Below are positions 6,177 to 52,643 of a stretch of 64,000 nucleotides of DNA, one piece after another. The stretch lies in assembly GCA_017934475.1 (NCBI GenBank), contig JAGBJN010000006.1, positions 64,437 to 128,436 of the forward strand, read 5' to 3'. A program made the position numbers and the translations under genes. The notes below the pieces were generated by a model. It worked only from the letters and a program-made list of their open reading frames with translations. It was not told the origin of the DNA and made no database searches. Source of the DNA: Clostridia bacterium (GTDB lineage Bacteria > Bacillota > Clostridia > TANB77 > CAG-508). Position 1 is the stretch's first letter. Every line of letters begins with the position of its first letter.

Positions 6177-6716
6177 TTATAATAATTCTTTAATTTTTTC
6201 TTCCATATCTTCTGGTTTAAATGTTGGCGAATATCTTGCTACAACTTTTCCTTCTCTATCTACTAAGAACTTTGTAAAATTCCATTTAATATCTCCGTCT
6301 TTTTTACAAGTTGTACTTATTTTTTCAACTGCTTTCATAGACATCTTATTTTTCATTCCTTCAATGATATCTTCTTTTACTTCACTTTTTATATAAGTAT
6401 ATATAGGGCTTTCATTTTCTCCATTTACATCTATTTTTGCAAATTGATCAAAAGAAGTATTATATTTTAAAGCGCAAAATTCATGTATTTCATCATCACT
6501 TCCTGGTGCTTGATTTCCAAATTGATTACATGGAAAATCTAGTATTTCTAGTCCTTTATCATGATATTCTTTATATAGTTTTTCAAGTCCCTCGTATTGT
6601 GGTGTAAATCCACATCCAGTTGCAGTATTAACAATGATTAATACTTTTCCTTTATAATCAGATATTGATATTTCCTTACCTTTTCTATTTAAAACCTTAC
6701 AATCATAAATTGACAT
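6177..6716 (-). CDS. gpx: glutathione peroxidase
   Basis: TATGCGFTPQY, NQFGNQAPG and WNFTKFLVDREGKVV are classic GPx signatures. Confidence 0.9.
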   Translation of the reverse strand: MSIYDCKVLNRKGKEISISDYKGKVLIIVNTATGCGFTPQYEGLEKLYKEYHDKGLEILDFPCNQFGNQAPGSDDEIHEFCALKYNTSFDQFAKIDVNGENESPIYTYIKSEVKEDIIEGMKNKMSMKAVEKISTTCKKDGDIKWNFTKFLVDREGKVVARYSPTFKPEDMEEKIKELL

Positions 6717-22128: not shown

Positions 22129-22129
22129 T

Positions 22130-22333
22130 TTATTTATCTCCTTTTGGTAATATTTTGTCTGTTAAGTCTTCAATTATATCAGCTTTTACAAGTGCAATTC
22201 CTCTTTCTTTATCGCATAAAACAATTATAGAATCCCCAGACTTTATATTAAACATATCTCTTGCCTCTTTTGGTATTACAATTTGTCCTTTTTCTCCAAC
22301 TTTACTTATTCCAACATATTTATCTTTTTCCAT
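22130..22333 (-). CDS. AbrB/MazE/SpoVT-fold DNA-binding protein
   Basis: VGEKGQIVIPKEARDMFNIKSGD is the swapped-hairpin signature. Its stop lies 1 nt before the acyltransferase ATG. Confidence 0.75.
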   Translation of the reverse strand: MEKDKYVGISKVGEKGQIVIPKEARDMFNIKSGDSIIVLCDKERGIALVKADIIEDLTDKILPKGDK

Positions 22334-22467
22334 AAATTACACCTCACAATCCAACTTGTTATACTTTTCGTACTTATTATACTTCGAAAAAATAAAAAAA
22401 GCAATAGAATTTTTTTGTAATTCCATCACTTTTATTTGTTTGACATCTCAAAATATTATGAATATCT

Positions 22468-22502
22468 ACTTGTTTACAATACCAAAATATTGTTAACATC
22501 AC
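22468..22502. repeat. copy 2 of the recurrent 35-nt intergenic element
   Basis: acttgtttacaataccaaaatattgttaacatcac, 25 nt 3' of the stop at 22527. Confidence 0.6.
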
Positions 22503-28773: not shown

Positions 28774-29154
28774 TTAGTAATATCTACATTTTTTACAAAC
28801 TTCAGCACTCTTTAATTTATATCCTTTATATTTATTTTTTAATGCTGTATAGTTTTTGCAGTCTTTCTTTAAAATGCAGCCACTTTGCATTATAAGACAG
28901 TCATTTATATATTCTATTAGTTCCATATTTTCATCAAACTCTTTATTGCAATTATGACATATATAACAACTATCTCTATCATCTCCAAATATGATTCCAA
29001 AAGAATCTATTTTAAGATTTTCATGCTTTACTATATCAACGAATTCTTTAGCCTTATTTCCAAAGAGTTCTCCTAATTTAACAGTTGAAACTTCATTATT
29101 ACAATAAGGGCATTTGTGATGTTTCCTTGCTCTTTCAATAGCTATATCTTTCAT
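28774..29154 (-). CDS. Cys-rich zinc-ribbon protein, unknown function (last gene of the R-M-linked module)
   Basis: CPYC at residues 15-18, CYICHNC at 63-69 and CKKC near the C-terminus; 126 aa. Confidence 0.6.
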   Translation of the reverse strand: MKDIAIERARKHHKCPYCNNEVSTVKLGELFGNKAKEFVDIVKHENLKIDSFGIIFGDDRDSCYICHNCNKEFDENMELIEYINDCLIMQSGCILKKDCKNYTALKNKYKGYKLKSAEVCKKCRYY

Positions 29155-29169
29155 TAAAATCCCTACTTT

Positions 29170-31116
29170 TTATATAAATAATTTTGAAATCAAGTTTAAT
29201 AACTGCGTTGTTAAATGCTTCATATCATCAACATCTATAACTCGATCATAAACTTCTTTTAATGCTTCATAGCATTCTGTATCCCCTTTTTCTTCTTCCA
29301 ATGCAACACCTATAATACTTATTCCCTCTTTTTCAATTTTTCTTGCTGTATTATGAGTGTCTTTTGTAGAAACAGGAGGACTATAATCATCATTGTCGTT
29401 TGCTGTATGACATGGATAACCATCTGAAATGCAAATAATTACTTTGTATTCTGCGTGAGAATGCTCTATTAAGTATTTTTTTGCCCACATTAAAGATAGA
29501 CCTTCTCTTGTTCCTTCATCTGCATCTAACAATAAAATATTGTACTTGTCATTTTTAGAATAATTAAAATCTACTAAAATTTTATGTTTTACTAATGGCT
29601 CATCAAATATAGCTCTATGTTCAACAATAGCATGTTCAATACCGTTTTTAGATAATACCTCGTGAAGTATTACTGAAGATTTAATTGCATTTTCGTTTTT
29701 AGCTCCTGCCATAGATCCTGATCCGTCTATTAAAAATAGAATTGCTATATCTGGTACATCTATTCCTTGAACTTTTCTATACCAATAGCGCTTTTTCAAG
29801 TCGCCTAATCTTTTAGATTCTATTCCACTTCCAAAGCTAAACTTATCTTCTTTTGAGTCAACATTTCCTTTTAGAAGTTGACTAAATTTAGCATTATAGG
29901 AATTTATATTAAGCTTATATCTATTGTAGATATTATCATAAGCTTTTTTCATATTTATATTTGGTTTAGGATATGTAACTTTTATTTTTATATCTTTGTG
30001 CATTGCACTAGCCTTTAAATCTCCGCCTGTATATTCCCAATGTTGAGTAGTTTTTGAAGCTTGTCTTATACTTTGTCGTTTATCTTCTTCAAATTTTTCT
30101 AATTCATAAATATACTGTTCTGAATAATCATCATCAATTTTATTTCCTTCTAAATCAGTAAATAATCTTCTTGTTATTACTGCTTTTCTTCCTTTAGATT
30201 CAAATTGATTTATAGACATATCCTTTCCAGAGTGAGTTTTTTCATCTCCTACTAAAACAGAAATGAATTTCTTTACATATTCGTATTTCTCAATGTCTTT
30301 ATCATTTATTTTAGGGATTAAAGGTTCTATAATGTCAAAAATTTTACTTGTATATTCGTATCTTTGGTCTGGATCTCCGCAAATACTTCCTTCAAGCCAT
30401 AGTTCTTTTGTCTTATCTACATATTCTTTTATATCTTCTGAAGGTTCTTCAAGTTTTACCATAGGATATAAAAGCATTGTAGTAAAATAATCAATTAGTT
30501 CCATTATTAAACTTATTTTTCTTTGTATTTTAAGTTCTTCTTCAGAAGGTTTTGTTTCTTGTTCTTCTTCTGGTTTTGTAAATTCTTCAAATTTTCTTTG
30601 TATTGTTCCTTTAGCAGGTGTAGTTGAAAATAACCTTGAAACTCTTCCAAAGGTTAAGAAAAGATTCATATTATCAAATTCACTAGCTCCTGCGGCTTCA
30701 ATAAAGCAATCTTCTATTACATTTGATATACTGCTTAATATCATTTGATTAAATTTATTATTCCCTCTAGGATCTTTTAATAAATCTGGAGGAAAGTTAG
30801 TATAGATTATATGTAATGCTTCATGTATGTTTTGCGCTCTAGTAATCATTTTTAAAGCTATAAATCGATCAACAGAAAAAGTTTGAGGAAGACCTAAAAA
30901 TTCTTCTGTGTTTTTTAATGCGATATAATCGCAAAATAATTCATCGTTTGCAGGATCTACAACTATATTTTTTCCATCAGTATAAGCTTGATTTTCATTT
31001 ATAAAAAACAACCTTAAATTTGGATTTTCTGAAAGCATTGAGGCAAAGTCTTCTTCAATTTTTCTATTATCTTCAGTTTGAAATATCTTTAAAATTTCTC
31101 TATCTTGCTTTTGCAT
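29170..31116 (-). CDS. vWA-domain protein with N-terminal HExxH (zincin-like) region
   Basis: MIDAS LIDGSGSM (DNA 29710-29727), ICISDGYP, HEALH at residues 98-102 (DNA 30811-30825), and an acidic linker. Confidence 0.75.
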   Translation of the reverse strand: MQKQDREILKIFQTEDNRKIEEDFASMLSENPNLRLFFINENQAYTDGKNIVVDPANDELFCDYIALKNTEEFLGLPQTFSVDRFIALKMITRAQNIHEALHIIYTNFPPDLLKDPRGNNKFNQMILSSISNVIEDCFIEAAGASEFDNMNLFLTFGRVSRLFSTTPAKGTIQRKFEEFTKPEEEQETKPSEEELKIQRKISLIMELIDYFTTMLLYPMVKLEEPSEDIKEYVDKTKELWLEGSICGDPDQRYEYTSKIFDIIEPLIPKINDKDIEKYEYVKKFISVLVGDEKTHSGKDMSINQFESKGRKAVITRRLFTDLEGNKIDDDYSEQYIYELEKFEEDKRQSIRQASKTTQHWEYTGGDLKASAMHKDIKIKVTYPKPNINMKKAYDNIYNRYKLNINSYNAKFSQLLKGNVDSKEDKFSFGSGIESKRLGDLKKRYWYRKVQGIDVPDIAILFLIDGSGSMAGAKNENAIKSSVILHEVLSKNGIEHAIVEHRAIFDEPLVKHKILVDFNYSKNDKYNILLLDADEGTREGLSLMWAKKYLIEHSHAEYKVIICISDGYPCHTANDNDDYSPPVSTKDTHNTARKIEKEGISIIGVALEEEKGDTECYEALKEVYDRVIDVDDMKHLTTQLLNLISKLFI

Positions 31117-31140
31117 AGAAGAACCATACCTCCTTTTAAA

Positions 31141-32694
31141 CTAATTCCATTTATATAATAATAAAAATCCTCTAATTACATTTTCAAGTGTTCTATCACA
31201 TTTTGCAATAGGTATAATTGTTTTTTCAGCAGCTTTTAAATAACCTTCATATTTAGCTTGTCTAGCCCAATTTTCAAGATTTCTAGGAGAAATAACTATA
31301 TCTAATTCTTCAGCCTCTATTTTATTTTTTAATTTATGATATACTCCTAAAATTTTTGTAACATATTCTTTGCATTCTGGAACTCTTGTTATTAGCATTT
31401 TCTTAATTGCTGCATCTGATAGTGAAGCAATTTCAACAATAGTATTAAATCTGTTATATAATGCTTGATTCAACTCTTTTGTTCCAAAGTATCCTAAATT
31501 CATAGTTGCAAAGAATCTAAAATTAGGATTTCTTCTAACTATTTCTCCGTTATCTAATCTAACAAATCCATTGTCATCTAATAATGAATTCAAGAAAGCT
31601 AAATATGCAGGTTTAGCAAAGTTTATTTCTTCAAATACTACTGCTCCCCCATCTCTTATTGCTTTTGTTACAAAGCTTTCTTTAAAGACTATCTGATCTC
31701 CTTCTGGAATAAATTTACCTAAAATAAATTCATCTAAATTTTCGCTACAATTTACTGTATCCATAATAGGAAGTCCAATATCTCTACAAATTAGCTTACA
31801 AGAAATTGTTTTACCAGTCCCAGCAGGACCATGAAGTAAAACAGTTTTTGAATCTCCATTTACTACTGCATTACATATTGGCTTTAATTGTTCTGGAAGT
31901 TCAAATTCTTCTCCTAAATTTGGTATTAGTTGTTTTTGTTCTTCTGTAAATACATTATCTTCAAATTTTGTAACTACTATATCTAATGTTTCTTGTAATT
32001 GCTCTTTGTTTTGTCTTATAACTCCGTAAACATCTTTATAAGAAACGAATTCTCTTAAGTCATAATTAAGAAGATCTTCATCAGTTGTAAAATTGTATTC
32101 TTCCATCTTATGCTCTTGATAGAAGTCTTCATGAATATTTACAAAAGTATCAGCAGTTGGATTTTCTATGTAATTAAAGACAACTCTATTAAATTCATCA
32201 TCGTTACTTGTATCTCTTGCAAGTAATGCAGCAAACGAAACAAAATACCAATAAATCATATCTATTAGTTCGCCGTCTTCGGGATATTCTTTACTTTCTG
32301 TTGGCAATATACTTTGATTTTCGTCATAGAAGGTTAGGTTTATTTCATTATTCTCTAATAATACAACAGCTTGATCTACTCTATTGTCAATTATTCCGTT
32401 ATCTTTCCAATCTTCTGGAAATTTAACTTTGAAATACAGTTTTGATTTATCACTATTTACTAAAATATCTCCAGAGATTCCATCTTCGTTTGAAATTAAG
32501 CTTCTTAATACTAGAGAGAATAAAGTTATCCCCTCTCCTATTGGCTGACAAAGTGTTGTTGTTCCTCTATAAGATTGATTATTTGGATGTACATAGTATT
32601 GTGTAGCATCAGACAAATGTCTGAATCCAAATCCTTTATATATTTCATCGCTATTTTCCCTTACAATTTTGTAAGAATCTTTAAATATATTCAT
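31141..32694 (-). CDS. MoxR/CobS/AAA_5-type AAA+ ATPase with a ~280-aa unique N-terminal domain
   Basis: Walker A LLHGPAGTGKT (DNA 31807-31830), Walker B-like AVVFEEINFAKP, FFATMN sensor. Start moved to MNIFKD (AGAGGTG RBS). Confidence 0.75.
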   Translation of the reverse strand: MNIFKDSYKIVRENSDEIYKGFGFRHLSDATQYYVHPNNQSYRGTTTLCQPIGEGITLFSLVLRSLISNEDGISGDILVNSDKSKLYFKVKFPEDWKDNGIIDNRVDQAVVLLENNEINLTFYDENQSILPTESKEYPEDGELIDMIYWYFVSFAALLARDTSNDDEFNRVVFNYIENPTADTFVNIHEDFYQEHKMEEYNFTTDEDLLNYDLREFVSYKDVYGVIRQNKEQLQETLDIVVTKFEDNVFTEEQKQLIPNLGEEFELPEQLKPICNAVVNGDSKTVLLHGPAGTGKTISCKLICRDIGLPIMDTVNCSENLDEFILGKFIPEGDQIVFKESFVTKAIRDGGAVVFEEINFAKPAYLAFLNSLLDDNGFVRLDNGEIVRRNPNFRFFATMNLGYFGTKELNQALYNRFNTIVEIASLSDAAIKKMLITRVPECKEYVTKILGVYHKLKNKIEAEELDIVISPRNLENWARQAKYEGYLKAAEKTIIPIAKCDRTLENVIRGFLLLYKWN

Positions 32695-32711
32695 AAATCC
32701 CACCTCTAAAT

Positions 32712-33425
32712 TTAATGTGATATTTTTAATCCTTTATTTTCATCTAAATCAAATCCTACTTGCCAGAAACAGCTGTCTAATATTTTCATTTGAGGATATT
32801 CCATTCCGTTTACAGTCATTTGACTTCTTGCATCTTCAAACTCTTTATAGTATTCATTATAAAAATCGACCAATTCTAGTATAGATTTTATATTAAAATT
32901 ACCAGAAGCAGCTTTCTCATTTCGTACTCCTGAAACAAAATATCTATCATAAGCAGGAACACAACCTAAAGTTCCCATTAAAACCTTTGTAACTAAAGTA
33001 TCAGATAATTCATTTTTAGGAATAGATTCTTTTACGCTTAATCTAATTTTATTATATACTTCTTTAATTCTACTTACTAAATCTTTTAATTTTTCTTGGT
33101 TTTCTATATTCTTATATTGATTTATTTCTATTCCCCATAATGAGTTATATTTATCTTCAAGTAATATTTTTATTACTGGTTTATGTACTTTATAATCTCT
33201 CTGTAATAAGAACGAAGAGCCTCTATACATTCCCCAACTCGCTAGATAAAAAGATAAATGCAAACATAAATAGTCTATAAATTCGTCATCTACAAAGCTT
33301 GAATTATGGGCATCATAAAATATTTTATAGCAATATTCCCATGATCTATATCTTCCATTTTCATCTTCTCTTAATTTATTATAAAATTTTAAACCTTGAT
33401 TTATTATTTCTTTAATATCACTCAT
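32712..33425 (-). CDS. 237-aa protein, unknown function (first gene after hsdR)
   Basis: Long ORF 20 nt after the hsdR stop. I recognise no motif. Conserved-looking core: RYRSWEYCY...FYLASWGMYRGSSFLL. Confidence 0.6.
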   Translation of the reverse strand: MSDIKEIINQGLKFYNKLREDENGRYRSWEYCYKIFYDAHNSSFVDDEFIDYLCLHLSFYLASWGMYRGSSFLLQRDYKVHKPVIKILLEDKYNSLWGIEINQYKNIENQEKLKDLVSRIKEVYNKIRLSVKESIPKNELSDTLVTKVLMGTLGCVPAYDRYFVSGVRNEKAASGNFNIKSILELVDFYNEYYKEFEDARSQMTVNGMEYPQMKILDSCFWQVGFDLDENKGLKISH

Positions 33426-33445: not shown

Positions 33446-36400
33446 TTAGTTATTATCATTAGGATTATAATCTTCATCTTCTTCAGCAACTTGTAATAAT
33501 TCATTATTATTATTTGCTAAATTATATAATTCTTCTTCATTTCTAAATCCATTAGTTTTTATGTATGTATGCTCTGTTTGAGTATCATCATCTCTTTTTT
33601 TACTTACTTCTATATTTTCTCCCATCAATTCAGCTTGTAATACAACTGTTTGAACTGCTTCATCTGCTTTTGTTGGTGGATAATGATATTTTCTTAATAA
33701 TCTCTTTATTTCTCTTCTCATGAAAGCTCTAGCTGATTCTTTCTTATCCCAATCAACAGTCCTATTCTTTCTAACTGTTTCAGTAAGTTCATGAGCTAAT
33801 TGTATTAAAACTTCGTCTTGCATTTCTTTTAATACATTTGGATCTTTAACAAGAGCATCATAGAAAGCATATTCATCGTCTGTTAATCCTTTTTCTTTTC
33901 CTTCATTTTTAGCATCTACAACTTCTTTTGAAAGATTTAATAATTCTTCAATAACTTCTGCACTTGTTATTAAACGATTATTATATTTTTTCATTATTTC
34001 AGCCATTTTTTGTGAGAATAATTCTGCTTTTACTAAATTAGTTCTTTTGAAAACTCTAATATTTCCATCGATAAGTCTTTTTAATAATTCAGCTGCAATA
34101 TTTTTATTTTTCGATTTCTTTATACTTTCAAGATATTCTTCTGAAAGTATAGAAATTTCTGGATTACTTCTATCTGCTGCTTTAAATATATCAATTATTC
34201 CATCCTCTTGAATAGCTTGTTCTAATACATTTAAGATTCTTTGATTTACTTCTGTTGTAGTTAAATGTCCTTTTCCTGTTATTTTATTAACGCCAACTTT
34301 TACGCCTTTAAAGAATTCAACTTCTAATTTTGTTTGTTCATCTAATATACTTCTTGCAAGTGTTTCAGCTTGAGATAAAGCTGTTGCTTCAGCGATAAAA
34401 TCTTTCTTTTCATCTTCGTCTTTAGAAAGTACATAGTTAATTCCATCAGCTAAAGTTCTTAATCTTAATTGATTTGAACTACTGAAGAAACCTTGATAAT
34501 CAAATCCATAGAAGAAATCTCTCATTACTTCTAGTTTCTCTCTAACTATTACATACGCTGCTGTAATATCTGGAACTTTATCTCTATCTCTATTTGTATA
34601 TTCATTTAAAGCGTTTCTTAAGTCTGCTCCTATACCTATATAATCAACAATAAGTCCTGCTTCTTTGTCTTTGTAAACTCTATTAACACGAGCTATTGCT
34701 TGCATTAAGTTATGACCTCTCATAGGCTTGTCTATGTACATTGTAGCAAGGTCTGGAACATCAAATCCAGTAAGCCACATATCAACAACAATAACAATTT
34801 TTAGCTTACTTTTTTCATCTTTAAATTCAGTTGCAAGGTCATCTCTATACTTTTTATTTCCAACTATTTCATGCCAATCAGTAGGATCATCATTATTATC
34901 TGTTAAAACAACTTTAATTTTATCATTCCATTCTGGTCTTTTTTCTATAATTTCTTTATATAAATCTATTGCTATTTTTCTAGTCATACAAACAATCATA
35001 GCTTTTCCATTTAGTATATCTTCTCTTTGCTCGTAATGTTCAATAATATCTTTAGATAACATTTCTAAACGATCTTGTGCGCCAATAACTGTTTCAAGTT
35101 TTGCAAGTTCTTCTTTAGATTTAGTTACAGTTTCAACATCAGCTTCGTCATTTTCAATTATGTAGTTATACTCGTCATCAATTTCTTTAAGAACATTTTC
35201 GTCAAGTTTTAATTTTGCAACTCTATTTTCATAATAAATAGGAACAGTAGCATTATCTAATACAGCTTGAGTCATATCATATACATCTATGTAATCTCCG
35301 AAAAGTATTCTTGTGTTTTTATCTGCATATTCTATTGGAGTTCCAGTAAAAGCTATGAAAGTAGCTTTAGGAAGACTATCTCTCATCTTTTTAGCATAGC
35401 CTGTTTGGAATTCTCCAGTTTTTCTATTAAATTTCTTCTCTGTACTATATTGACTTCTATGTGCTTCATCAACGATAAATATAATATTTTCACGATCAGA
35501 AATTATATCATCGCCTTCTTCAAATTTTTGTATAGTTGTAAATATAATTCCACCTGCATTTACGCTTAATAGCTCTTTTAATTTCTTTCTACTTGCAGCA
35601 TGTTGAGTTTTTTGAGGAAGTATTTCTCTATTTGTATTCGCAAATGTTTCATATAATTGGTTATCTAAATCGTTTCTGTCTGTTAGTACAACAATAGTAG
35701 GATTGTTTAAGTCTTGTATTTTAGAAATTTTTCCAGTATAAAATACCATTGCGAAACTTTTTCCAGAACCTTGAGTATGCCATACAACACCTGCTTTTCC
35801 AGTATGTTCATCTAAAGCTTTTAATGTGCTTTTTATTGATTTATCTACTGCAAAATATTGATGGTATCCTGCTAGTATCTTTATTCTTCCTTTTTCTTTA
35901 TTTTGAAATAATATAAAGTTTGTAATAATGTCAATTAGTCTATCTTTTCTGAAAACACCATTTAATAATACATCTATTTGATTTATATTATCTTCTGGCT
36001 TCTCCCCATCTTTAGATTTCCATGTCATAAATCTATTAAAGTCTGCTGTAATAGTTCCTATTCTTGCATTTATTCCATCACTTATTACGCTAAAAACATT
36101 GTAATAAAATAAGCTCTTAATGTCTTCTTGATAATTTTTTATTTGATTATATGCGTTTTCAATAGTTGTATCTTCATTTATTGCATTTTTAAGTTCAAAT
36201 ACAATTAGAGGGATTCCGTTTATAAATACAACAACATCAGGTCTTTTTTCTTTATATTCAATAACGGTGTATTGATTTAAGACTTGGAATAGGTTATTTT
36301 CTATATTATCTCTATCAATTAACTTTGCAACAAAAGTTTTATCTCCTTCAATAGGAACTTCAACTCCTGCATAAAACATGTGATAAAATTCGTAGTTTGC

Positions 36401-36622
36401 TTCTACAAGATCTACTGCATGAAAGTTTCTTATTTTTCTATATACTTCATCTGCAATATCTTCAGTTATTCCTTCATTTATTTTATATAAGGATTCATAA
36501 AATACATCTTTTAGTATTGCTTCTTTATAATCTCTTTCAACATCAGGTGCATACTGATATTCATAACCTAATTCCTTTAATTGTTCAATTATGGCTTGTT
36601 CTACATTATCCTCTCTGAACAT
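33446..36622 (-). CDS. hsdR: type I restriction enzyme, R (endonuclease/translocase) subunit
   Basis: N-terminal PD-(D/E)xK region (VVFINGIPLIVFELK), helicase motif I HTQGSGKS and motif II IVDEAHRSQ; 1058 aa. Confidence 0.95.
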   Translation of the reverse strand: MFREDNVEQAIIEQLKELGYEYQYAPDVERDYKEAILKDVFYESLYKINEGITEDIADEVYRKIRNFHAVDLVEANYEFYHMFYAGVEVPIEGDKTFVAKLIDRDNIENNLFQVLNQYTVIEYKEKRPDVVVFINGIPLIVFELKNAINEDTTIENAYNQIKNYQEDIKSLFYYNVFSVISDGINARIGTITADFNRFMTWKSKDGEKPEDNINQIDVLLNGVFRKDRLIDIITNFILFQNKEKGRIKILAGYHQYFAVDKSIKSTLKALDEHTGKAGVVWHTQGSGKSFAMVFYTGKISKIQDLNNPTIVVLTDRNDLDNQLYETFANTNREILPQKTQHAASRKKLKELLSVNAGGIIFTTIQKFEEGDDIISDRENIIFIVDEAHRSQYSTEKKFNRKTGEFQTGYAKKMRDSLPKATFIAFTGTPIEYADKNTRILFGDYIDVYDMTQAVLDNATVPIYYENRVAKLKLDENVLKEIDDEYNYIIENDEADVETVTKSKEELAKLETVIGAQDRLEMLSKDIIEHYEQREDILNGKAMIVCMTRKIAIDLYKEIIEKRPEWNDKIKVVLTDNNDDPTDWHEIVGNKKYRDDLATEFKDEKSKLKIVIVVDMWLTGFDVPDLATMYIDKPMRGHNLMQAIARVNRVYKDKEAGLIVDYIGIGADLRNALNEYTNRDRDKVPDITAAYVIVREKLEVMRDFFYGFDYQGFFSSSNQLRLRTLADGINYVLSKDEDEKKDFIAEATALSQAETLARSILDEQTKLEVEFFKGVKVGVNKITGKGHLTTTEVNQRILNVLEQAIQEDGIIDIFKAADRSNPEISILSEEYLESIKKSKNKNIAAELLKRLIDGNIRVFKRTNLVKAELFSQKMAEIMKKYNNRLITSAEVIEELLNLSKEVVDAKNEGKEKGLTDDEYAFYDALVKDPNVLKEMQDEVLIQLAHELTETVRKNRTVDWDKKESARAFMRREIKRLLRKYHYPPTKADEAVQTVVLQAELMGENIEVSKKRDDDTQTEHTYIKTNGFRNEEELYNLANNNNELLQVAEEDEDYNPNDNN

Positions 36623-36658: not shown

Positions 36659-36745
36659 TAACAAATAACAATTTGTATGACTAAATTTCAATTTTATCTA
36701 GGTCTATTTCTCCATTCATAAGTTTTGGTAGTAAAGTATCTCTGA
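36659..36745. repeat. 87-bp direct repeat, copy A (3' end of the hsdS cassette plus 22 nt of 3' flank)
   Basis: Identical to 38887-38973 except for one base (a/t at repeat position 76). Confidence 0.9.
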
Positions 36746-37274
36746 GCTTAATTAAATTTATATTTTCAGAATTATTATGTTGTATCTTTTTTAAAATATT
36801 TTTATATTTTAATTGCTGCTCAATACTAATAATTGGTAATCCCAGTGTATTAACAAAAGCTTTATCTGTATGAGGTATAGCCGAACCTGTATTTTTATTT
36901 TTTATAAGTTCTGAATATTTTTTTAGTATAAAAAATATATATTCTTTGGTATAGCTTTCGTTGATTATATCTATTTTAGCTAATGTTGAGCCAACAATAC
37001 CATAATCTGAAAAATATACTTCTCCACTGCTAGCCCCATCCATTACCATTAAAATATCTTTCTCTGAAATTATTGTTTTTGTTGGATTAGCGTATGTAAT
37101 TTCTTGATTATTCAAACAGGCTATTGTTAAATATTTGATATAATCTTTTTCTTCTTTATTACTAATATTTAATGGTTTTTTCCCTTTTGTAAATTTTATT
37201 ATGTTATTAAGTAATTCTATTTCTGCATTATTCTCAAAATCATTTTGTAATAAGCTATTTGCTATTTCGTACAA
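36681..37274 (-). CDS. half hsdS cassette: TRD2' + C-terminal conserved region (probably silent)
   Basis: It ends with LPKLMNGEIDLDKIEI, matching the full-length hsdS C-terminus (same last 16 aa). It has only a TTG start and no RBS, and an in-frame stop lies 6 codons upstream. Confidence 0.7.
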   Translation of the reverse strand: MYEIANSLLQNDFENNAEIELLNNIIKFTKGKKPLNISNKEEKDYIKYLTIACLNNQEITYANPTKTIISEKDILMVMDGASSGEVYFSDYGIVGSTLAKIDIINESYTKEYIFFILKKYSELIKNKNTGSAIPHTDKAFVNTLGLPIISIEQQLKYKNILKKIQHNNSENINLIKLRDTLLPKLMNGEIDLDKIEI

Positions 37275-37303
37275 ATTATTATTTATGTGCGTTTATTTGT
37301 AAA

Positions 37304-37837
37304 TTAAGCTACTTGCAAATTATTATTTGTATGAATATTTAAATCTATTTTTCTATCTAATATATTTAAGATATATGCAATCTTTCTTTGATTTTTCAAG
37401 TCTGGAATCATTATTTTTGTTTTTGAAAGTTCGTTAAAAGTTATTTGAGGAAATGTTCCAGATCTTGTTTCTGCTACATGTTGAAGGTAGTTTATTACAT
37501 TATCACTTTTTAATATTTGATATAAATAGTCATTATCTATATTTCCTTTATTTCTTAATACCATAAGTTTTGTACTAGCGATATAGTCATCGGAATCAAA
37601 ATTTATATATGCAAATCTTTTATTTTTTGGTCTTATTTCGCTATATAAAATATCATTCTTTTTAAATCTTTTTTTGAATTGCCCTTTCAAATTCTTATTA
37701 CTTACATACTCATGGTTTAAAACTTTTCCATTTTCTATATCAGAAGTGTTAATAAGTATAACTTCAGATTTATTTATTTTAGTTGTATCTGTTATACTTT
37801 CAACAAATTCTCCTAATTCTCTTTCATATAAGTTCAT
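37304..37837 (-). CDS. half hsdS: TRD1' + central conserved region, own RBS
   Basis: It ends with HTNNNL, the same central motif as full-length hsdS (KHTNNNLYKIL). GGTGG RBS, 10 nt after the recombinase stop. Confidence 0.7.
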   Translation of the reverse strand: MNLYERELGEFVESITDTTKINKSEVILINTSDIENGKVLNHEYVSNKNLKGQFKKRFKKNDILYSEIRPKNKRFAYINFDSDDYIASTKLMVLRNKGNIDNDYLYQILKSDNVINYLQHVAETRSGTFPQITFNELSKTKIMIPDLKNQRKIAYILNILDRKIDLNIHTNNNLQVA

Positions 37838-37847
37838 ATAATTCCAC

Positions 37848-38849
37848 CTATCCTATATATTTTCTGTGTGAATTTTTCACATTATTTTGATTAACCATAG
37901 CGTAATGCATTGTTGTTTCTATTTTTACATGTCCTAATAACTTCTGAACTTGTTCTATTGGCATTCCTTTATCTATTGCCATTGTAGCTAAAGTTCTCCT
38001 AAATTTATGAGGATGTACTTTATTTATATTTGTTTCAAATCCTAAATTTCTAACTATTCTCTCGACTCCAGATATTGAAAGTCTTTGATGAGGTTTATTC
38101 TTTGAAACAAATAAGGCATTATTATTATCTTTTCTTGATTCGAGATATTGCTTCGAATGTATTTTGGTTCTAGCATCAAAATATACCTCTCTTTGTTTAT
38201 TTCCTTTTCCTTGTACTATACAAGATCTATCTTCAAAGTTTATATCTTCTATATTTAAGTTTACAAGTTCTCCTACTCTTATTCCAGTTGAATATAACAG
38301 CTCAATCATTGCTAGATCACGAATAAACTTACATTCATCTCGCATAGTTTCTATGTTTTCATCAGAAAATGTTTCTTTCACTAAAGTTGCTGTTTTAACT
38401 CTATGAATTCTTCTAACTGGACTTTTTATAATATAATCTTCATCTTCTAACCATGAGAAGAAGCTTGAAAATATTCTTCTTAAATTGTCTATTGTTACGC
38501 TGCTACATTTGTTTAAATCTTTATAATCTGATAAATATTTCCTAATGTCTTCAGTTGTAATTATTTTTATAGGTTTATCAAGTTTTAATATTAGATTTTC
38601 AATATTTTCCCTATAATATTTTATTGTTCTTACAGAGCAACCTTCGACTTCTTTAGCTGATAAAAAGGAATTTATGTATTTTTCATTAGTGTTTTGTTCT
38701 TCTTTTTTCTTTATTTCATCAGTTAATACTGTTATTTCAATATTTTTAAACTGAATTATTAGTACATTTTTCAATAATTCTAGCTGATAATTAGTCAAAT
38801 TATTGGACATTTCATTTGTGATTGTTAAAATTACTTGTTCTTTTTCCAT
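37848..38849 (-). CDS. tyrosine site-specific recombinase (XerC/D-like) embedded between hsdS genes
   Basis: C-terminal catalytic pattern: GIRVGEL (Arg), HPHKFRRT (HxxR), LLGHVKIETTMHY (His, Tyr). Confidence 0.9.
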   Translation of the reverse strand: MEKEQVILTITNEMSNNLTNYQLELLKNVLIIQFKNIEITVLTDEIKKKEEQNTNEKYINSFLSAKEVEGCSVRTIKYYRENIENLILKLDKPIKIITTEDIRKYLSDYKDLNKCSSVTIDNLRRIFSSFFSWLEDEDYIIKSPVRRIHRVKTATLVKETFSDENIETMRDECKFIRDLAMIELLYSTGIRVGELVNLNIEDINFEDRSCIVQGKGNKQREVYFDARTKIHSKQYLESRKDNNNALFVSKNKPHQRLSISGVERIVRNLGFETNINKVHPHKFRRTLATMAIDKGMPIEQVQKLLGHVKIETTMHYAMVNQNNVKNSHRKYIG

Positions 38850-38886
38850 ATAATATTGCTCCTTTCAGCAATATTATACTTCGCTA

Positions 38887-38973
38887 TAACAAATAACAAT
38901 TTGTATGACTAAATTTCAATTTTATCTAGGTCTATTTCTCCATTCATAAGTTTTGGTAGTATAGTATCTCTGA
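38887..38973. repeat. 87-bp direct repeat, copy B
   Basis: See 36659-36745; same orientation. Confidence 0.9.
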
Positions 38974-40114
38974 TTTGTTCTAAATTCTCAATTTGCTTTG
39001 TTTTATTATATATTCTATCTATTATTGGTTTAATAATATCAGTAAAACTTTGCATTTCATTTTTAGTTGGAAGCTTCAATTTGAATTGTTTTAAATCAGC
39101 CATTCTTATACCTTTTTGAACGCTACCACTTGCCTTATTTACTGCATAATTTTGCATATTTTTATTCAAAAGTAATAAATATAAGAATTCCGATGAACAT
39201 TTTTCATTTGGTCTAATAGTAAATATAGATTCGCTGATATTCCAATTATCTGGAATATCTTTTATTAAATAAACTCTTCCTATTGTTCCTATTCCTGAAA
39301 AAAGTAAATCTCCTACTTTTAGATCTGATCTTTTATTTATTTTTAGTATTGCTTCGTCATCTACTTTATCGCATTTATCATTTAGAATAACATCATTATT
39401 TTGCATATTTTTTATGGTTACATAATAATTAGAGCCATGACCTAAAACAAAGTTTTTTCTTGGGTTAAGCCCTGTTGCAAATTTTGAAGTTATATCATCT
39501 AAAGTTACTTCTTCCCATAGGTCGTATCTTTCATTATTTAGATATTTTTCTTTAAATATATTGTCGAGTATTTTATACAAATTATTATTTGTATGCTTAT
39601 TTTGAGCTATTTTTTTTGTAATGCTCTCTAGTAGCATTACGATTTTGTCTTGGTATTCTCTATTTGGCAAATCAATCTCTAAATCTCCATACATTTTTGC
39701 ATTTATATTTCCTCTTGTACTTCCTGTTTGAATTTCTTTTACCCAATTTTTATATTTATTTGTCATCGTATAATATTTGATATATTTAGGGTTTACTTTT
39801 GATTCATCTAAACTGAATTTTATTAAGAATCCTGCATACACTAAATCTTTTATAGTTCCATCATAAAAGTATGTTTTTCCTGTACTGTTTCCAGTTCTTG
39901 CAAAACAAATATCATTTTCTTCAAGAAGATATTCTTTAGAATTTGGATCATTTACAGATTTCAATTCATTTTCGTTTATTGTGCCATCTTCAGAAATATC
40001 TGTTATTCTTAAATATTTATATAAATCCTTATTAAAATCAACTGCTGCTGCTCCAATTCCGTAATTACCTTGCCCTTTTGAAATATCTTTTAATTTAATT
40101 TTATTAAATTTCAT
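38909..40114 (-). CDS. hsdS: type I R-M specificity subunit, full length (two TRDs)
   Basis: 401 aa with central HTNNNLYKILD and C-terminal RDTILPKLMNGEIDL conserved regions. It overlaps hsdM by 11 nt. Confidence 0.9.
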   Translation of the reverse strand: MKFNKIKLKDISKGQGNYGIGAAAVDFNKDLYKYLRITDISEDGTINENELKSVNDPNSKEYLLEENDICFARTGNSTGKTYFYDGTIKDLVYAGFLIKFSLDESKVNPKYIKYYTMTNKYKNWVKEIQTGSTRGNINAKMYGDLEIDLPNREYQDKIVMLLESITKKIAQNKHTNNNLYKILDNIFKEKYLNNERYDLWEEVTLDDITSKFATGLNPRKNFVLGHGSNYYVTIKNMQNNDVILNDKCDKVDDEAILKINKRSDLKVGDLLFSGIGTIGRVYLIKDIPDNWNISESIFTIRPNEKCSSEFLYLLLLNKNMQNYAVNKASGSVQKGIRMADLKQFKLKLPTKNEMQSFTDIIKPIIDRIYNKTKQIENLEQIRDTILPKLMNGEIDLDKIEI

Positions 40115-41624
40115 ATCCTATCGCTCCTAACACTTTCTTTAACTCTATATTAAGAGCTTCTTCTTCTTTTAATTGTTCTGATAATTCTGCTGTAAGTTTT
40201 TGCATTTTTTCTTCAAAAGGAATTCCATCTCCTTCATCCTCTGGAGTTCCAACATATCTACCTGGAGTTAGAGCATAATCGTTTTCTTTTACTTCTTCAA
40301 TAGTTGCTGATTTGCAGAATCCTAATTCATCTTCATAATTTGATTCGTTTCTCCAATTATGATATGTTGTAGCTATTTTTGAAATATCTTCTTCAGTTAA
40401 TTCTCTTACTTTTCTGTCAATCATTGAACCTAAATTTCTAGCATCTATAAATAATACTTTGTTTCTTGTCTTTTCATCTCTGTTTCTCCTCATAATCCAA
40501 AGAGAACAAGGAATTCCAGTAGCGTAGAATAATTGACTAGGCATAGCAACTATACATTCAACTACTCTACCTTCTATCATATTCTTTCTTATTTCGCCTT
40601 CTCCGCTTGAATCACTTGCCAATGCTCCATTAGCTAATACTGTTCCTGCAACTCCGTTTTCTGGGTTTAAATGATGTATCATGTGTTGAAGCCATGCATA
40701 ATTTGCGTTTCCTACTGGAGGAATTCCATATTTCCATCTAACATCATCTCTTAATTTATCTCCGCCCCAATCTGAAATGTTAAAAGGTGGATTTGCTAAT
40801 ATAAAATTAGCTTTAAGTGATTTATGTAGGTCATTATGAAATGTGTCAGCATTTCTATCTCCTAAATTTCCTTCTATTTGTCTAATAGCTAGGTTCATTT
40901 TAGCTAGTTTCCATGTTGTAGGATTTAACTCTTGACCATATACAGAAACTTCTCTTGAATTTCCTTGATGTTCTTTTACAAATTTATATGATTGTACGAA
41001 CATTCCTCCAGATCCACAACAAGGATCATAAACGATTCCTTTATATGGTTCTATCATTGAAACTAAAGTTCTAACTATGCAAGAAGGTGTATAGAATTCT
41101 CCTCCATTCTTTCCTTCAGCTGAAGCAAATTTACTTAAAAAATATTCATATACTCTTCCTAACATATCTACTTCTTTAGCTCTATCTGTTCCAATCTCTA
41201 AATTAGTAAACAGTGTAACAAGTTCTCCTAATCTTGTTTTATCTATTTCTGGTCTTGAATAGTTTTTATTTAATACATTTTTTAATCTAGGATTTTCTTT
41301 TTCAATTAAATCCATAGCCTTATCAATTACTTGTCCTATTTCTGGACTATTTGTATATTTTACTATTTCTTCCCATCTTGCTTCTTTAGGAATCCAGAAA
41401 ACATTTTCAGAAAGATATTCATCCTTATCTTCTGAATCTGCATATTCGTCTTGAGCTATTTGTTGTTGTCTTACTTCAAATGCATCAGAAACATATTTTA
41501 AGAATATCAAACCTAAAGCAACATGTTTGTACTCTGAAGAATCCATACTTCCTCTTAATTTATCTGCTGCAAGCCATAGCTTGTCTTCACATCCTAACAT
41601 TGTACTTGATTCTTTCTTTGCCAT
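40104..41624 (-). CDS. hsdM: type I R-M N6-adenine DNA methyltransferase subunit
   Basis: Motif I VYDPCCGSGGM, motif IV ILANPPFN and the N-terminal HsdM helix bundle (LWLAADKLRG). Confidence 0.95.
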   Translation of the reverse strand: MAKKESSTMLGCEDKLWLAADKLRGSMDSSEYKHVALGLIFLKYVSDAFEVRQQQIAQDEYADSEDKDEYLSENVFWIPKEARWEEIVKYTNSPEIGQVIDKAMDLIEKENPRLKNVLNKNYSRPEIDKTRLGELVTLFTNLEIGTDRAKEVDMLGRVYEYFLSKFASAEGKNGGEFYTPSCIVRTLVSMIEPYKGIVYDPCCGSGGMFVQSYKFVKEHQGNSREVSVYGQELNPTTWKLAKMNLAIRQIEGNLGDRNADTFHNDLHKSLKANFILANPPFNISDWGGDKLRDDVRWKYGIPPVGNANYAWLQHMIHHLNPENGVAGTVLANGALASDSSGEGEIRKNMIEGRVVECIVAMPSQLFYATGIPCSLWIMRRNRDEKTRNKVLFIDARNLGSMIDRKVRELTEEDISKIATTYHNWRNESNYEDELGFCKSATIEEVKENDYALTPGRYVGTPEDEGDGIPFEEKMQKLTAELSEQLKEEEALNIELKKVLGAIGYEI

Positions 41625-41644: not shown

Positions 41645-41860
41645 TTATAATGAGCCTTTAAGAGTTAATCCTAATAACTCTAATTCAACTTCAATCTTAT
41701 TTATTTCGTTTTGTAATAATCCCATATCTTTTAGTTGAGATTTTTTATAACTACTTAACTGTCCTAAAGTATTTATTTCATTTTCTTTTAATGTATCTAG
41801 TGCTTTTTGATTTACATCTAGTCTATCTACGAATTGACTAAAATACTTATTTTCTTGCAT
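41645..41860 (-). CDS. 71-aa stand-alone RNAP alpha-CTD-like helix-hairpin-helix protein
   Basis: VDRLDVNQKALDTLKENEINTLGQLSSYKKSQLKDMGLLQNEINKIEVELELLGLTL follows the alpha-CTD pattern (L.V..ra.n.Lk...I.t.G.L......L....g....eI...L...GL.L). Confidence 0.5.
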   Translation of the reverse strand: MQENKYFSQFVDRLDVNQKALDTLKENEINTLGQLSSYKKSQLKDMGLLQNEINKIEVELELLGLTLKGSL

Positions 41861-42134
41861 TTTTTACACCCCTTTGTTTTATTGCTATCAATAATTGATT
41901 TTGTTCTACTTCATATTTTTGTCCTTCGTAGTTATATTTTTGACCTGTTCTATAAATTTTGTAGTTATTATTTTCTAATTTTATACTTACTAAATGAAGA
42001 AAATTTAATGTTTCTTCTGAAGATAAATTAAGCTTTACTCTTAATTCATAGAAAGTAAAAATTATGTAATTTTCATTCTGTTTTAGCTTATTTTCTAGGT
42101 ATAAATCAATTTGCTGTAAACTCATTAAATTCAC
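41847..42134 (-). CDS. 95-aa protein, unknown function; first ORF of the R-M block
   Basis: ORF overlapping the next gene by 14 nt. No motif recognised. Confidence 0.45.
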   Translation of the reverse strand: MNLMSLQQIDLYLENKLKQNENYIIFTFYELRVKLNLSSEETLNFLHLVSIKLENNNYKIYRTGQKYNYEGQKYEVEQNQLLIAIKQRGVKNARK

Positions 42135-42290
42135 TCCATTCCGTCTTACAATAATTCAGAATAAATTATATCAAAAAATGAAAAAAATGTCGATAGTTTT
42201 TTACCTACGAATTCTTGTTCTTATAAGCGTTTCAGACAAATAAAAATAACAAAACCTTATCAATCAAGAATGATCAATAAGGTTATTTAA

Positions 42291-43772: not shown

Positions 43773-45029
43773 TTAGTGATGACCTTTCCATGCTTCCATT
43801 GTTTTTTCATAGTCATTACCTTTTGGCTGTTGAACTGCTCTAGGATTCATTTCTTGAAGTGCTTGTACTCTATTAGATCCAAAACCTAAAATTTGAACAT
43901 CATCTTTATCGTAAGTTCTTTCTTTACACTCATCTCCTGAATTTCCCTCTATTGTATGTATTGTATGGCTTTCTACATCATACACTTTTATAATTCCAAC
44001 ATGATCTGAAAGACCATCTTGCGTTCCTGTTTCTTTATCTTTCCAATCAAAGAATATAATGTCGCCTGGTACTGGGAAAAAGTCTTCAGTATTATCGAAC
44101 CATAATCCTTTTTCTTTATACCATTCTACTCCATTAACACATCCTGAAAATTTAGGAGTTTTACCTTCTTCTATATACCCTACTTGATCAGCGCACCACG
44201 AAACAAAACAAGCGCACCATTCAACTCTTGAATCAAATCCGTACCAACTCCAATATGGATCTCCTCCAGTTACTCCTATTTGAGTTTGCGCTACTGCAAC
44301 TATATCGCTATTCCATAATTCTTTTGTATCTGCATCTCCACCAGAGTTAAATATAGCTAAAATTCCTCCAAATAAACATACTACTAATATTATAATTACT
44401 GAAACCCATCCACCTGCAATTAGTAATTTAATTAGAGCAGAAGTTGCTTTTACCATTGCCTTAATTATTTGTATCATTGCTTTAATCGCTGCTTTTGTTG
44501 CTTTTGCTGTTGCTTGAGCTGCCTTTTTTGCCATTTGTACTGCTCTTCTTGTATTTTTTGCTGTTTCTTTAGCAACTTTAGCAGAATTCTTTGCAACTTT
44601 TTCAGTAGTTTTTATAGATTTTCCAGTTAATTTAACACCTTCTTTTGATGTCTTAATACTTCCTTTAACTCTTTTTAAATTATCTTTTGATTTTATTGTA
44701 CCTTTTAATTTTTTAGCTGCTGCTTTTTCTTTAGCTCGTGTTTTATATGCTTCAACTTGATTCTTTGCTTTTCTAAAATTTTCTTTTGTATCTTTAACAG
44801 ATTTAATCCCTTGTCTATTAAATTCTTCAGTTCCTCTTTTAGCAATTTGCTTTTCTGTATTTTTAACTTTATTTGTTGCATATTCATTACTAGAATAAGA
44901 ATCATCTTTATAAGCATTTTCAGACTTGTCTTTAATATTAACAATGTTGTCTTTTATTCTTTCTGTTCCTATTCTAGCTCTATCTAATGTTTTAACTGTT
45001 CCTCTTACTTTAGTTTTAATATCAGCCAT
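43773..45029 (-). CDS. conjugation-associated cell-wall hydrolase, CHAP domain, with Lys-rich coiled-coil and TM helix
   Basis: C-terminal CHAP: catalytic Cys in VEWCACFVSWC and His in LSDHVGII. TM helix LLIAGGWVSVIIILVVCLFGGILAIF. Confidence 0.8.
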   Translation of the reverse strand: MADIKTKVRGTVKTLDRARIGTERIKDNIVNIKDKSENAYKDDSYSSNEYATNKVKNTEKQIAKRGTEEFNRQGIKSVKDTKENFRKAKNQVEAYKTRAKEKAAAKKLKGTIKSKDNLKRVKGSIKTSKEGVKLTGKSIKTTEKVAKNSAKVAKETAKNTRRAVQMAKKAAQATAKATKAAIKAMIQIIKAMVKATSALIKLLIAGGWVSVIIILVVCLFGGILAIFNSGGDADTKELWNSDIVAVAQTQIGVTGGDPYWSWYGFDSRVEWCACFVSWCADQVGYIEEGKTPKFSGCVNGVEWYKEKGLWFDNTEDFFPVPGDIIFFDWKDKETGTQDGLSDHVGIIKVYDVESHTIHTIEGNSGDECKERTYDKDDVQILGFGSNRVQALQEMNPRAVQQPKGNDYEKTMEAWKGHH

Positions 45030-46136: not shown

Positions 46137-46883
46137 CTATATTTTCTTTGCTACTACTACCATTCTTCCATTATTTAACGAATATTCACAAGTAGAAAGA
46201 GTTATAAGTCTATCTCCATAACTTGCTGATTCTTCAGTATTGTAAAAAGATAATTTTTGGCATTGTTCGACAAAAGAATTATAATCCGCTTCTGAAGTAG
46301 CATTATAAAAGTTATAGTATTTGAATCCACCTTTGTTTACTGTTGTTTTAAAACAAAATACAACTTTATATTCTTCTTCTATTGTTTCAGTACCTTGTAA
46401 TTTATATAATTTAATTATTTTGTGATTCAAATAATAATTATAATTTTTATATTTATCTAAATCAGCGAACATCATACCACTTTTAATATGATGACCATAT
46501 ATAATTAAATTATCGCTTGTGTTTATATTACAATATTCAGCTAAAAAAGGTGTTCCATAACTAGAATATTCTTTATAAATATTTCGTCTTAAATAGTATT
46601 CTCCATTTTGCATTATAGGATAATCTATATTTGAGTCTTTTAACTTAATCCACCCTACTACATCATTATTCATTAAATATAAATTATATAAGTCTATTTT
46701 ATCTTCAGCCTCTTCTTGATTTTCTTCTGAAGTATCTATAACTATTTCTTTTATGTCTTCAAAATCATCTTCTTGTTTTTTCTCTTGTAATAAATTACTT
46801 AATATATAATAACTGCTAGCGACTATAATAGCCACTAGCAGAATAAAAAAGAATACTTTCATATACTTATTGACTTTCATCAA
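46137..46883 (-). CDS. srtB: class B sortase
   Basis: N-terminal TM helix, NNDVVGWIKL..IDYPIMQ, YGHH and the catalytic TLSTCEY. Confidence 0.85.
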   Translation of the reverse strand: MMKVNKYMKVFFFILLVAIIVASSYYILSNLLQEKKQEDDFEDIKEIVIDTSEENQEEAEDKIDLYNLYLMNNDVVGWIKLKDSNIDYPIMQNGEYYLRRNIYKEYSSYGTPFLAEYCNINTSDNLIIYGHHIKSGMMFADLDKYKNYNYYLNHKIIKLYKLQGTETIEEEYKVVFCFKTTVNKGGFKYYNFYNATSEADYNSFVEQCQKLSFYNTEESASYGDRLITLSTCEYSLNNGRMVVVAKKI

Positions 46884-52301: not shown

Positions 52302-52643
52302 CTACCCTCCTGTTATTAGTGATAATATTTCTTTTGCAAATGTAATAACGATTCCTCCTGCAAGTGTCATTATTCCATTAGCTCTTTGTGTTGGATCGTG
52401 AGATTTTAAGCTCATACCTACTTGAACTATTCCAAATCCTAGAATAATCATTCCAACAGCTCTAATTAAACCGAATACAAAATTCGACAAATTATTTACA
52501 ACCGCAATAGGATCATCAGCTGCAAATACATTACTTGCTTGTAAAACAAATAGCAATACCACATAAAATACTATAAATGCTATTTTCCAACCTAGATTTT
52601 TTACTTTAAATTTATTTTTTATATTTTCTTTCTTCATCTTCAA
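52302..52643 (-). CDS. Maff2-family small membrane protein (VirB2/pilin-like position)
   Basis: Signal/TM region, then two hydrophobic helices and a ...LITGG C-terminus. Confidence 0.6.
   Translation of the reverse strand: MKMKKENIKNKFKVKNLGWKIAFIVFYVVLLFVLQASNVFAADDPIAVVNNLSNFVFGLIRAVGMIILGFGIVQVGMSLKSHDPTQRANGIMTLAGGIVITFAKEILSLITGG

Follow-up and report, generated by a model that had tools for sequence, protein, structure and literature searches.

A TvrR-family type I restriction-modification locus with directly oriented hsdS cassettes in a Clostridia bacterium, probably phase-variable by excision and reintegration

In the pneumococcal tvr/SpnIV locus, sequences that encode the target recognition domains (TRDs) of a type I restriction-modification (R-M) system are shuffled by recombinase-driven excision and reintegration via circular intermediates (Kwun et al. 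2018, PMC6265443). The tvr repeats lie in a single orientation and comprise a mid-point repeat of ∼18 bp and a tail-end repeat of ∼70 bp that have a core of ∼11 bp in common (PMC6265443). The tvr recombinase, TvrR, belongs to "clade 2" of the hsdS-associated recombinases, which has been found in 10 phyla and in 267 Firmicutes loci in NCBI (PMC7672463). Huang et al. (2020), who called the clade-2 arrangements peculiar and performed no experiments on the clade, predicted inversion and/or excision-reintegration for these loci and noted a sole direct-repeat member, in Sphaerochaeta halotolerans (PMC7672463). Here, we analyze a type I R-M locus with spare hsdS cassettes in a 64-kb stretch of DNA from a Clostridia bacterium (GenBank assembly GCA_017934475.1, contig JAGBJN010000006.1, positions 64,437 to 128,436), which we refer to as the window. 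We consider it likely (probability of ∼0.8) that this is a TvrR-family, tvr/SpnIV-like phase-variable locus, in which TRDs are shuffled by excision-reintegration and not by inversion.

Based on the Pfam assignments, a complete set of type I genes (hsdM, hsdS, and hsdR) surrounds the array, and all of the genes and repeats of the locus lie on the minus strand. The hsdM gene (506 aa, 40104-41624; Pfam HsdM_N and N6_Mtase, E = 1e-109) is followed by a full-length hsdS (401 aa, 38909-40114; two Methylase_S domains), the start of which overlaps the hsdM stop. Within this hsdS, an N-type TRD cassette (N1, 39593-40114) is joined at the mid-point repeat to a C-type cassette (Ca, 38909-39576). After the hsdS stop, an interval of only 59 nt leads to the start of a gene for a tyrosine recombinase of the TvrR family (333 aa, 37848-38849; Pfam Phage_integrase and SAM_4). 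Next come a truncated hsdS that constitutes a second N-type cassette (N2, 177 aa, 37304-37837), a half-hsdS open reading frame (ORF) that constitutes a second C-type cassette (Cb, 197 aa, 36681-37274), each with one Methylase_S domain, and hsdR (1058 aa, 33446-36622; Pfam HSDR_N, SWI2_SNF2, and T1RH-like_C). By both Pfam and a TRD profile hidden Markov model (HMM), the locus has four TRD domains, which share a strand and run N, C, N, C. The N2 ORF has its own AGGTGG ribosome-binding site and ends in ...HTNNNL-QVA-stop inside a short spacer (x, described below), whereas the Cb ORF has a TTG start without a Shine-Dalgarno sequence, and Cb is probably silent in the window's arrangement. An initial annotation of the window had proposed this gene order, with a ribosome-binding site on the N-type half and none on the C-type half; the ORFs, the Pfam assignments, and the sequences preceding the two half-genes bear it out.

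Two classes of direct repeats are present in the locus. The tail-end repeat, 87 nt in length, occurs at 38887-38973 (T1) and 36659-36745 (T2), and each copy consists of the last 65 nt of an hsdS ORF, including the stop codon, and the 22 nt past the stop. The two copies are direct and differ by one mismatch in 87 nt (blastn E = 5e-42), as the initial annotation had reported for the hsdS 3′ end. That annotation had also noted three direct copies of a central hsdS motif, which we find as the mid-point repeat cores a (39577-39592, ACAAATAATAATTTGT, encoding T-N-N-N-L of the central helix), c (37315-37330), and d (37271-37286, ATAAATAATAATTTGT); the TTG inside core d is the sole candidate start codon of the C-half ORF. 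It had gone unnoticed that the central motif is a palindrome, ACAAAT-N4-ATTTGT. The same palindrome arms lie just past both hsdS stops, inside the 87-nt repeats, at their recombinase-proximal or hsdR-proximal edge (core ACAAATTGTTATTTGT at 38889-38904 in T1, just after the hsdS stop, and the corresponding core at 36661-36676 in T2), and the identity between T1 and T2 stops 2 nt beyond this core. When up to 1 mismatch is allowed, ACAAAT-N4-ATTTGT has 8 matches in the window (1.47 expected), 5 of which are in the R-M locus.

The cores fall into two groups by their 4-nt spacers, which on the minus strand are AATA at the mid-point cores a, c, and d, and TGTT at the tail-end cores of T1 and T2. Among 124 core sites in 32 loci, 73 have the spacer AATA, 50 have TGTT, and none is a hybrid; the last site, with the spacer ATGT, is not part of the R-M locus. 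A further element, spacer x (28 nt, 37287-37314), lies between the tandem mid-point cores c and d and contains an in-frame stop codon that splits the downstream hsdS.

The initial annotation had left room for an inverted hsdS fragment overlooked on either strand. Searches with tblastn, blastn-short, and an iterated TRD profile HMM detected no inverted hsdS fragment in the 64-kb window, and a repeat search and blastn-short detected no significant inverted repeat in the same 64 kb, which leaves the spare cassettes in direct orientation. One weak TRD HMM match on the plus strand (22089-22493) lacks both Pfam support and a core repeat.

For comparison with the pneumococcal system, tvr loci were retrieved from Streptococcus genomes with the published Rcirc primer (Kwun et al. 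2018), and the recombinase of one of them (contig L029, 3368-4333), which follows the tvrAT pair (78 and 137 aa), served as the reference TvrR. Over 285 aa, the window's recombinase shares 60% identity with S. pneumoniae TvrR (E = 1e-128), and the catalytic residues R191, K215/218, H281, R284, H307, and Y316 do not vary when the window's recombinase, TvrR, and five relatives are aligned. Its gene is located between the hsdS cassettes, and its ORF is intact. An NCBIfam label of "XerA/integron integrase" was set aside as a general Xer-like similarity that does not denote an integron, and the match to Pfam MrpR_C_cat on record for this protein is only weak. The tvr cores (CAAATCCCGATTTA at the mid-point and CAAATCACAATTTG at the tail end) have the shape CAAAT-N4-ATTT(G/A), as in the window. 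The occurrence of this shape in tvr despite quite different coding contexts provides good, if indirect, evidence for the palindromic core as the target of the recombinase.

Support for shuffling comes from related loci. Homologous contigs were gathered by exact-protein look-up, their cores were marked, and their cassettes were clustered by sequence; we took as evidence of shuffling differences among assembled metagenome contigs that encode identical recombinase proteins. In the notation used here, N and C are N-type and C-type TRDs, x is the short spacer between tandem mid-point cores, and a slash separates the upstream from the downstream hsdS position. Two recombinase lineages, P0055 and P0007, are 85% and 91% identical to the window's recombinase, respectively. 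In the P0055 lineage, contigs L016 and L017 have the arrangement N1-Cb/rec-N2-x-Cc, whereas L019, L020, and L021 have N1-Cc/rec-N2-x-Cb, with cassettes 100% identical to those of L017. Contigs L017 and L020 are from the same assembly (ERZ21549408), and their flanks are 99.8-100% identical. Contig L024 is fused upstream and split downstream (N1′-Cb′/N2′-x-Cd), whereas L023, with cassettes identical to those of L024, is split upstream and fused downstream (N1′-x-Cd/N2′-Cb′); L025 carries N2′-x-Cb′. In the P0007 contigs, each of the two C cassettes occurs in three settings (joined to N2, following x at the downstream position, and following x at the upstream position), and one of them also occurs in fused form upstream. 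These observations answer the suggestion, made in the initial annotation, that locus structure be compared among strains: the arrangements differ among relatives of both lineages.

The junctions between these arrangements are sharp. At the mid-point, the flanks switch exactly at the 16-nt core, and the counterpart of core d serves as a crossover site (L017 versus L019). At the tail end, a C/T difference located 25 nt upstream of the core moves with the cassette and the sequence after the core stays put, so the crossover maps to at most 41 nt including the core. In the relatives, N1 always adjoins hsdM, and the recombinase-N2 block is constant (∼1575-1600 nt). Junctions inside the 16-nt core, together with differing arrangements, are what excision-reintegration predicts, and the immobility of N1 and the constancy of the recombinase-N2 block are as such a model requires. 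In the lineages nearest to the window, which have recombinases 97-98% identical to its own, different TRDs are carried, and contigs L038, L039, and L043 are split upstream and fused downstream. Transfer of a circle between strains was considered as the origin of contig L022 and rejected, as this contig is 3-4% different from both lineages along its whole length.

Based on the above comparisons, we infer the following mechanism. The recombinase would bind the palindromic core (C)ACAAAT-N4-ATTTGT, and the 4-nt spacers would separate the cores into two site classes, mid-point (AATA) and tail-end (TGTT). Because all of the sites are direct, recombination between two sites of the same class would excise a circle, with predicted sizes of 2262 bp (a × c), 2306 bp (a × d), and 2228 bp (T1 × T2). 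Besides the recombinase gene and N2, each circle would contain one mid-point and one tail-end site; a circle from mid-point excision (a × c or a × d) would carry a C cassette, a tail-end site, the recombinase gene, and N2, with or without x, and excision at the tail end could yield the same content. Re-insertion via the other site class would swap the C cassettes between the hsdM-proximal and recombinase-distal positions and would also relocate the stop-containing spacer x. The locus could thereby take four states, N1-Ca/N2-x-Cb (that of the window), N1-Cb/N2-x-Ca, N1-x-Cb/N2-Ca, and N1-x-Ca/N2-Cb, each predicted to have one intact hsdS with a different TRD pair (N1Ca, N1Cb, N2Ca, or N2Cb). 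The states observed would each correspond to one excision and one reintegration (compare Figure 5 of Kwun et al., PMC6265443). Because c and d are 44 bp apart, and probably too close to synapse, x would be kept stable. The initial annotation had predicted a 2.2-2.3-kb circle, hybrid specificity, and reversal by reintegration, and the TvrR homology and the shuffled relatives now support this scheme at the level of the family.

The genes from hsdM through hsdR appear to form one operon. A consensus scan, which is weak evidence on its own, gave as the best promoter-like site upstream of the operon a TCGACA-17-TATAAT sequence with an extended TG (42165-42193, minus strand); a terminator-like hairpin (42284-42253) precedes it, and a simple scan detected no minus-strand terminator-like site from this promoter-like site through hsdR. 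Because no such site intervenes, and because N2 has its own ribosome-binding site, an intact downstream hsdS would plausibly be expressed. Two small ORFs of 95 and 71 aa, the latter with an RNA polymerase alpha-CTD-like helix-hairpin-helix, precede hsdM (41645-42134), downstream of this promoter-like site, which is the strongest in the region, and may encode regulators of the operon.

Spacers homologous to x, 24-30 nt in length, are found in all of the related loci compared with the window (L006, L016-L025, and L038-L044), where they follow the pattern of core-TTG, 3-5 codons ending in (V/A)A, and TAA. The spacer sits in the upstream hsdS, the downstream hsdS, or both, and every complete locus has one. 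These findings raise the possibility, which we advance tentatively and regard as somewhat doubtful, that the recombinase of this family moves, in addition to the TRD cassettes, a "splitter" of 24-30 nt, which is conserved and consists of ...(V/A)A-stop flanked by tandem mid-point sites. The switch would then determine which member of a co-transcribed pair of hsdS genes is left whole, giving four full-length specificities, including those built on N2, and two splitters in one locus, as in L044, would give an OFF or half-subunit state. The result would be a combined specificity and ON/OFF switch on conjugative elements, in which one recombinase serves two orthogonal site classes defined by their 4-nt spacers and a hairpin at the start codon replaces control by tvrAT and the attenuator.

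Such a hairpin is found at the start of the window's recombinase gene (38849-38878, minus strand). It has a 13-bp stem with the Shine-Dalgarno sequence in the loop and the A and U of the AUG paired, a predicted folding energy of -14.1 kcal/mol (z = -6.35), and no U-tract. In relatives, the hairpin is retained, and both partners have changed in two of its base pairs (G-C to A-T and C-G to T-A). Over 53 distinct TvrR-like leaders, the mean folding energy of the 50 nt ending at the ATG is -8.3 kcal/mol, compared with -3.7 kcal/mol for the leaders of hsdM and -3.2 kcal/mol for those of hsdR in these loci, and 45% of the recombinase leaders versus 0% of the hsdM and hsdR controls have z below -2. 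The structured leaders of the TvrR family (L006-L123) end 0-3 nt from the ATG, and their stem sequences differ between subfamilies. The hairpin may fill the role of the tvr attenuator.

Several observations weigh against active excision-reintegration in the window's own locus or against its simplest form. All of the contigs that encode an identical recombinase (9/9) or an identical HsdM (6/6) have the window's arrangement. Exact look-up in a collection of 15 billion proteins detected none of five predicted recombinants (N1Cb, N2Ca, N2Cb, N1x, and the Ca half). Two Logan contigs that had been candidates for excised circles (L004 and L005, 2201 and 2213 nt) were rejected, since their ends lie inside the 87-nt repeat, with overlaps of k-1 size. 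In the 97-98% lineages, contig L044 has both hsdS positions split (spacers 4259-4318 and 6540-6599), and the arrangements of L008 and L009, which are short contigs with the P0007 recombinase, and of L018, a long-read contig, go beyond one conservative event. Finally, the tvrAT toxin-antitoxin pair, which regulates tvrR, is absent at this locus; it is an accessory regulator that stands outside the recombination mechanism.

Some details of these contigs deserve mention. The ends of L004 and L005 do not overlap each other, and the assembly breaks at the 87-nt repeat. The only protein related to the predicted recombinants in the collection is P0123, an N1-like TRD that is ∼90% identical, ends in ...HTNNNLLAA, and represents the split form in another lineage. 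In contigs L008 and L009, the recombinase is flanked on either side by one and the same C cassette or by the spacer; this pattern could come from circular or tandem forms or from assembly through a mixed population. In L018, an aberrant N2 junction (7539-7620) contains 7 nt of the spacer, 19 novel nt, and a C cassette that lacks its first 11 nt, reflecting either imprecision of the event or the merging of mixed reads into a consensus. Contig L003, from another metagenome assembly, is in the window's arrangement except that a 1-nt deletion in a T6 run (39298-39303) truncates hsdS to 274 aa (P0122), which could be an assembly error or mark a slippage-prone tract.

Because only one arrangement is seen and the recombinant proteins were not found, a locked locus is a real alternative. 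On this explanation, the locus is a tvr-like family member in which the recombinase is silent or too weakly expressed, the two half-hsdS genes are inert spares, and the specificity is fixed as N1-Ca. It would fit the single arrangement in every contig of the window's lineage and a stable hairpin that occludes the recombinase start codon, and naturally locked tvr alleles have been described (Kwun et al. 2018, PMC6265443). We nevertheless judge it unlikely, because the recombinase ORF is intact with all of its catalytic residues, the five cores and both 87-nt repeats are intact (one mismatch), relatives with recombinases 85-91% identical clearly vary, and the sample is a handful of consensus assemblies, which mask minor variants. 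The window's own locus is probably active.

Far less probable is rearrangement by RecA-dependent homologous recombination or gene conversion between the repeats, with no direct part for the recombinase. Some homologous recombination could occur across a tail-end repeat of 87 nt, TvrR-independent excision across long repeats was found in tvr (Kwun 2018, PMC6265443), and gene conversion had been raised in the initial annotation. However, the mid-point exchange is confined to a 16-nt core between differing flanks, which is too short for RecA, and the tail-end exchange maps to 41 nt at the core and not to the whole repeat. In addition, the palindromic core shape is common to tvr and the window's family in unrelated coding contexts, and the array in every case includes a TvrR orthologue. 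The variants can be explained without gene conversion.

The weakest alternative, that the locus is an inverting shufflon with inverted parts missed or outside the window, or that the recombinase is the integrase or resolvase of a conjugative element, has almost no chance of being correct: although the ∼60%-identical TvrR-clade recombinases on the plasmids of cultured L. salivarius (pR1) and L. cremoris (pJM2A) adjoin one inverted half-hsdS, many metagenome loci of the recombinase clade have mixed orientation, and the R-M locus lies within a region resembling an integrative and conjugative element (ICE), the 64 kb contain no inverted TRD or significant inverted repeat, 32 of 32 window-type loci are all-direct, the variants seen are translocations and not inversions, and the recombinase and hsdS array travel together into differing genomic contexts.

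The family to which the window's locus belongs is abundant in gut metagenomes. A metagenome scan with the recombinase alignment gave more than 570 related stretches, of which 80 (59-98% identical) were kept; where the source was named, these were from human gut metagenomes. At least 120 recombinase clusters are at least 81% identical to the window's recombinase. An 88%-identical protein is from a "Clostridia bacterium" metagenome-assembled genome and a 98%-identical one is from a pig-gut metagenome. The family includes all-direct M-S-S-X-S-S-R, M-X-S-S-R, and mixed-orientation architectures. Several other all-direct loci have the same core shape, whereas the mixed loci that we inspected do not.

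The R-M array appears to be cargo of mobile, ICE-like elements. Upstream of the operon, on the same strand, lie conjugation and surface genes (43773-63933) that encode a CHAP hydrolase (43773-45029), a VirB4/TraG-like ATPase (46867-49224), a coupling protein (52612-54444), a relaxase (55336-56694), and an 8-repeat SpaA-fold protein (61069-63933). A sortase, called in contig L126, adds to this set of genes, and the R-M loci of relatives adjoin different mobile-element genes. Downstream of hsdR is a module (28774-33425) that encodes a 237-aa protein, an AAA_5/CobS-like ATPase of 520 aa with weak similarity to IetA, a CobT/vWA-like protein of 648 aa, and a protein of 126 aa. A simple scan detected no terminator-like site between hsdR and this module, whose proteins have only weak IetA and CobS similarity. 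We considered and rejected the module as a part of the R-M system, because it has no PADLOC match and is not found beside the R-M locus in relatives; on the same grounds, the link drawn in the initial annotation between the switch and this four-gene module is not supported.

These results extend type I phase variation by excision-reintegration beyond pneumococcus, the sole place where it has been demonstrated experimentally, and the variants found in nature point to a switch at work in the gut, with the expected effect of diversifying phage defense, barriers to gene transfer, and methylomes within strains. This type of locus also accounts for the fragmentation seen when such regions are assembled from short reads. 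As proposed here, a palindromic core whose two spacers do not interact would provide a compact and testable definition of the target of TvrR-family recombinases.

Compared with tvr, the window's locus has an orthologous recombinase and the same order of hsdM, hsdS, recombinase, spare N and C cassettes, and hsdR in a single orientation. In both loci there are short mid-point and long tail-end direct repeats with a CAAAT-N4-ATTT core, four possible arrangements with a fixed hsdM-proximal N cassette, and a hairpin upstream of the recombinase gene. The loci also differ in several ways. In tvr, a mid-point repeat lies between tvrR and N2, which makes N2 mobile (as in the "3+1" forms), whereas no mid-point repeat lies between the recombinase and N2 of the window, so its N2 is fixed. 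In the equivalent "slot," the window's family has the stop-containing 24-30-nt spacer with mid-point cores on both sides. The tail-end core is past the stop codon in the window, whereas it is within the ORF in tvr, where the C-terminal tails of the upstream and downstream copies consequently differ. The window's hairpin lies on the start codon and has no U-tract, and it is therefore not a terminator-like attenuator. The host is a bacterium of 27% GC known from metagenome assemblies alone, and the locus is on an ICE-like element.

Other described systems are more distant. The clade-2 loci of L. salivarius pR1 and L. cremoris pJM2A likewise have a ∼60%-identical recombinase among hsdS halves, but most described members of the clade mix hsdS orientations, whereas the window's locus is all-direct. 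The ivr/SpnD39III (CreX/PsrA) and Mycoplasma pulmonis hsd (HvsR/MrpR) systems also alter type I specificity through a recombinase-linked array of spare TRDs, with repeats at the center and 3′ end of hsdS. However, they have inverted repeats and opposed silent hsdS genes, in contrast to the direct repeats and different recombinase clade seen here, and inverted repeats within opposed hsdS genes, as in ivr, M. pulmonis, and Bacteroides fragilis, are absent from the 64 kb. As a functional analogy only, the heterospecific sites of Cre/lox also involve one tyrosine recombinase, palindromic arms, and two classes that differ in the spacer alone and do not cross-react, and direct sites there lead to excision and reintegration. 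There is no sequence relationship to Cre/lox, and the 4-nt "spacer" of the window denotes the non-palindromic center only and not a mapped cleavage interval. The orthogonality of the two site classes in the window's family is suggested by the lack of hybrids among the core sites.

The initial annotation had compared the locus only with well-studied systems that invert, a contrast that overlooked tvr/SpnIV, which works by excision-reintegration (PMC6265443), and a clade catalogued in hundreds of type I loci (PMC7672463). The locus is not a new type of system, because systems of this kind date from 2018 in the literature and the catalogue of the recombinase clade from 2020. It is a new member with some variant features, namely the stop-containing spacer, an N2 that is fixed, the absence of a toxin-antitoxin pair, and the start-codon hairpin.

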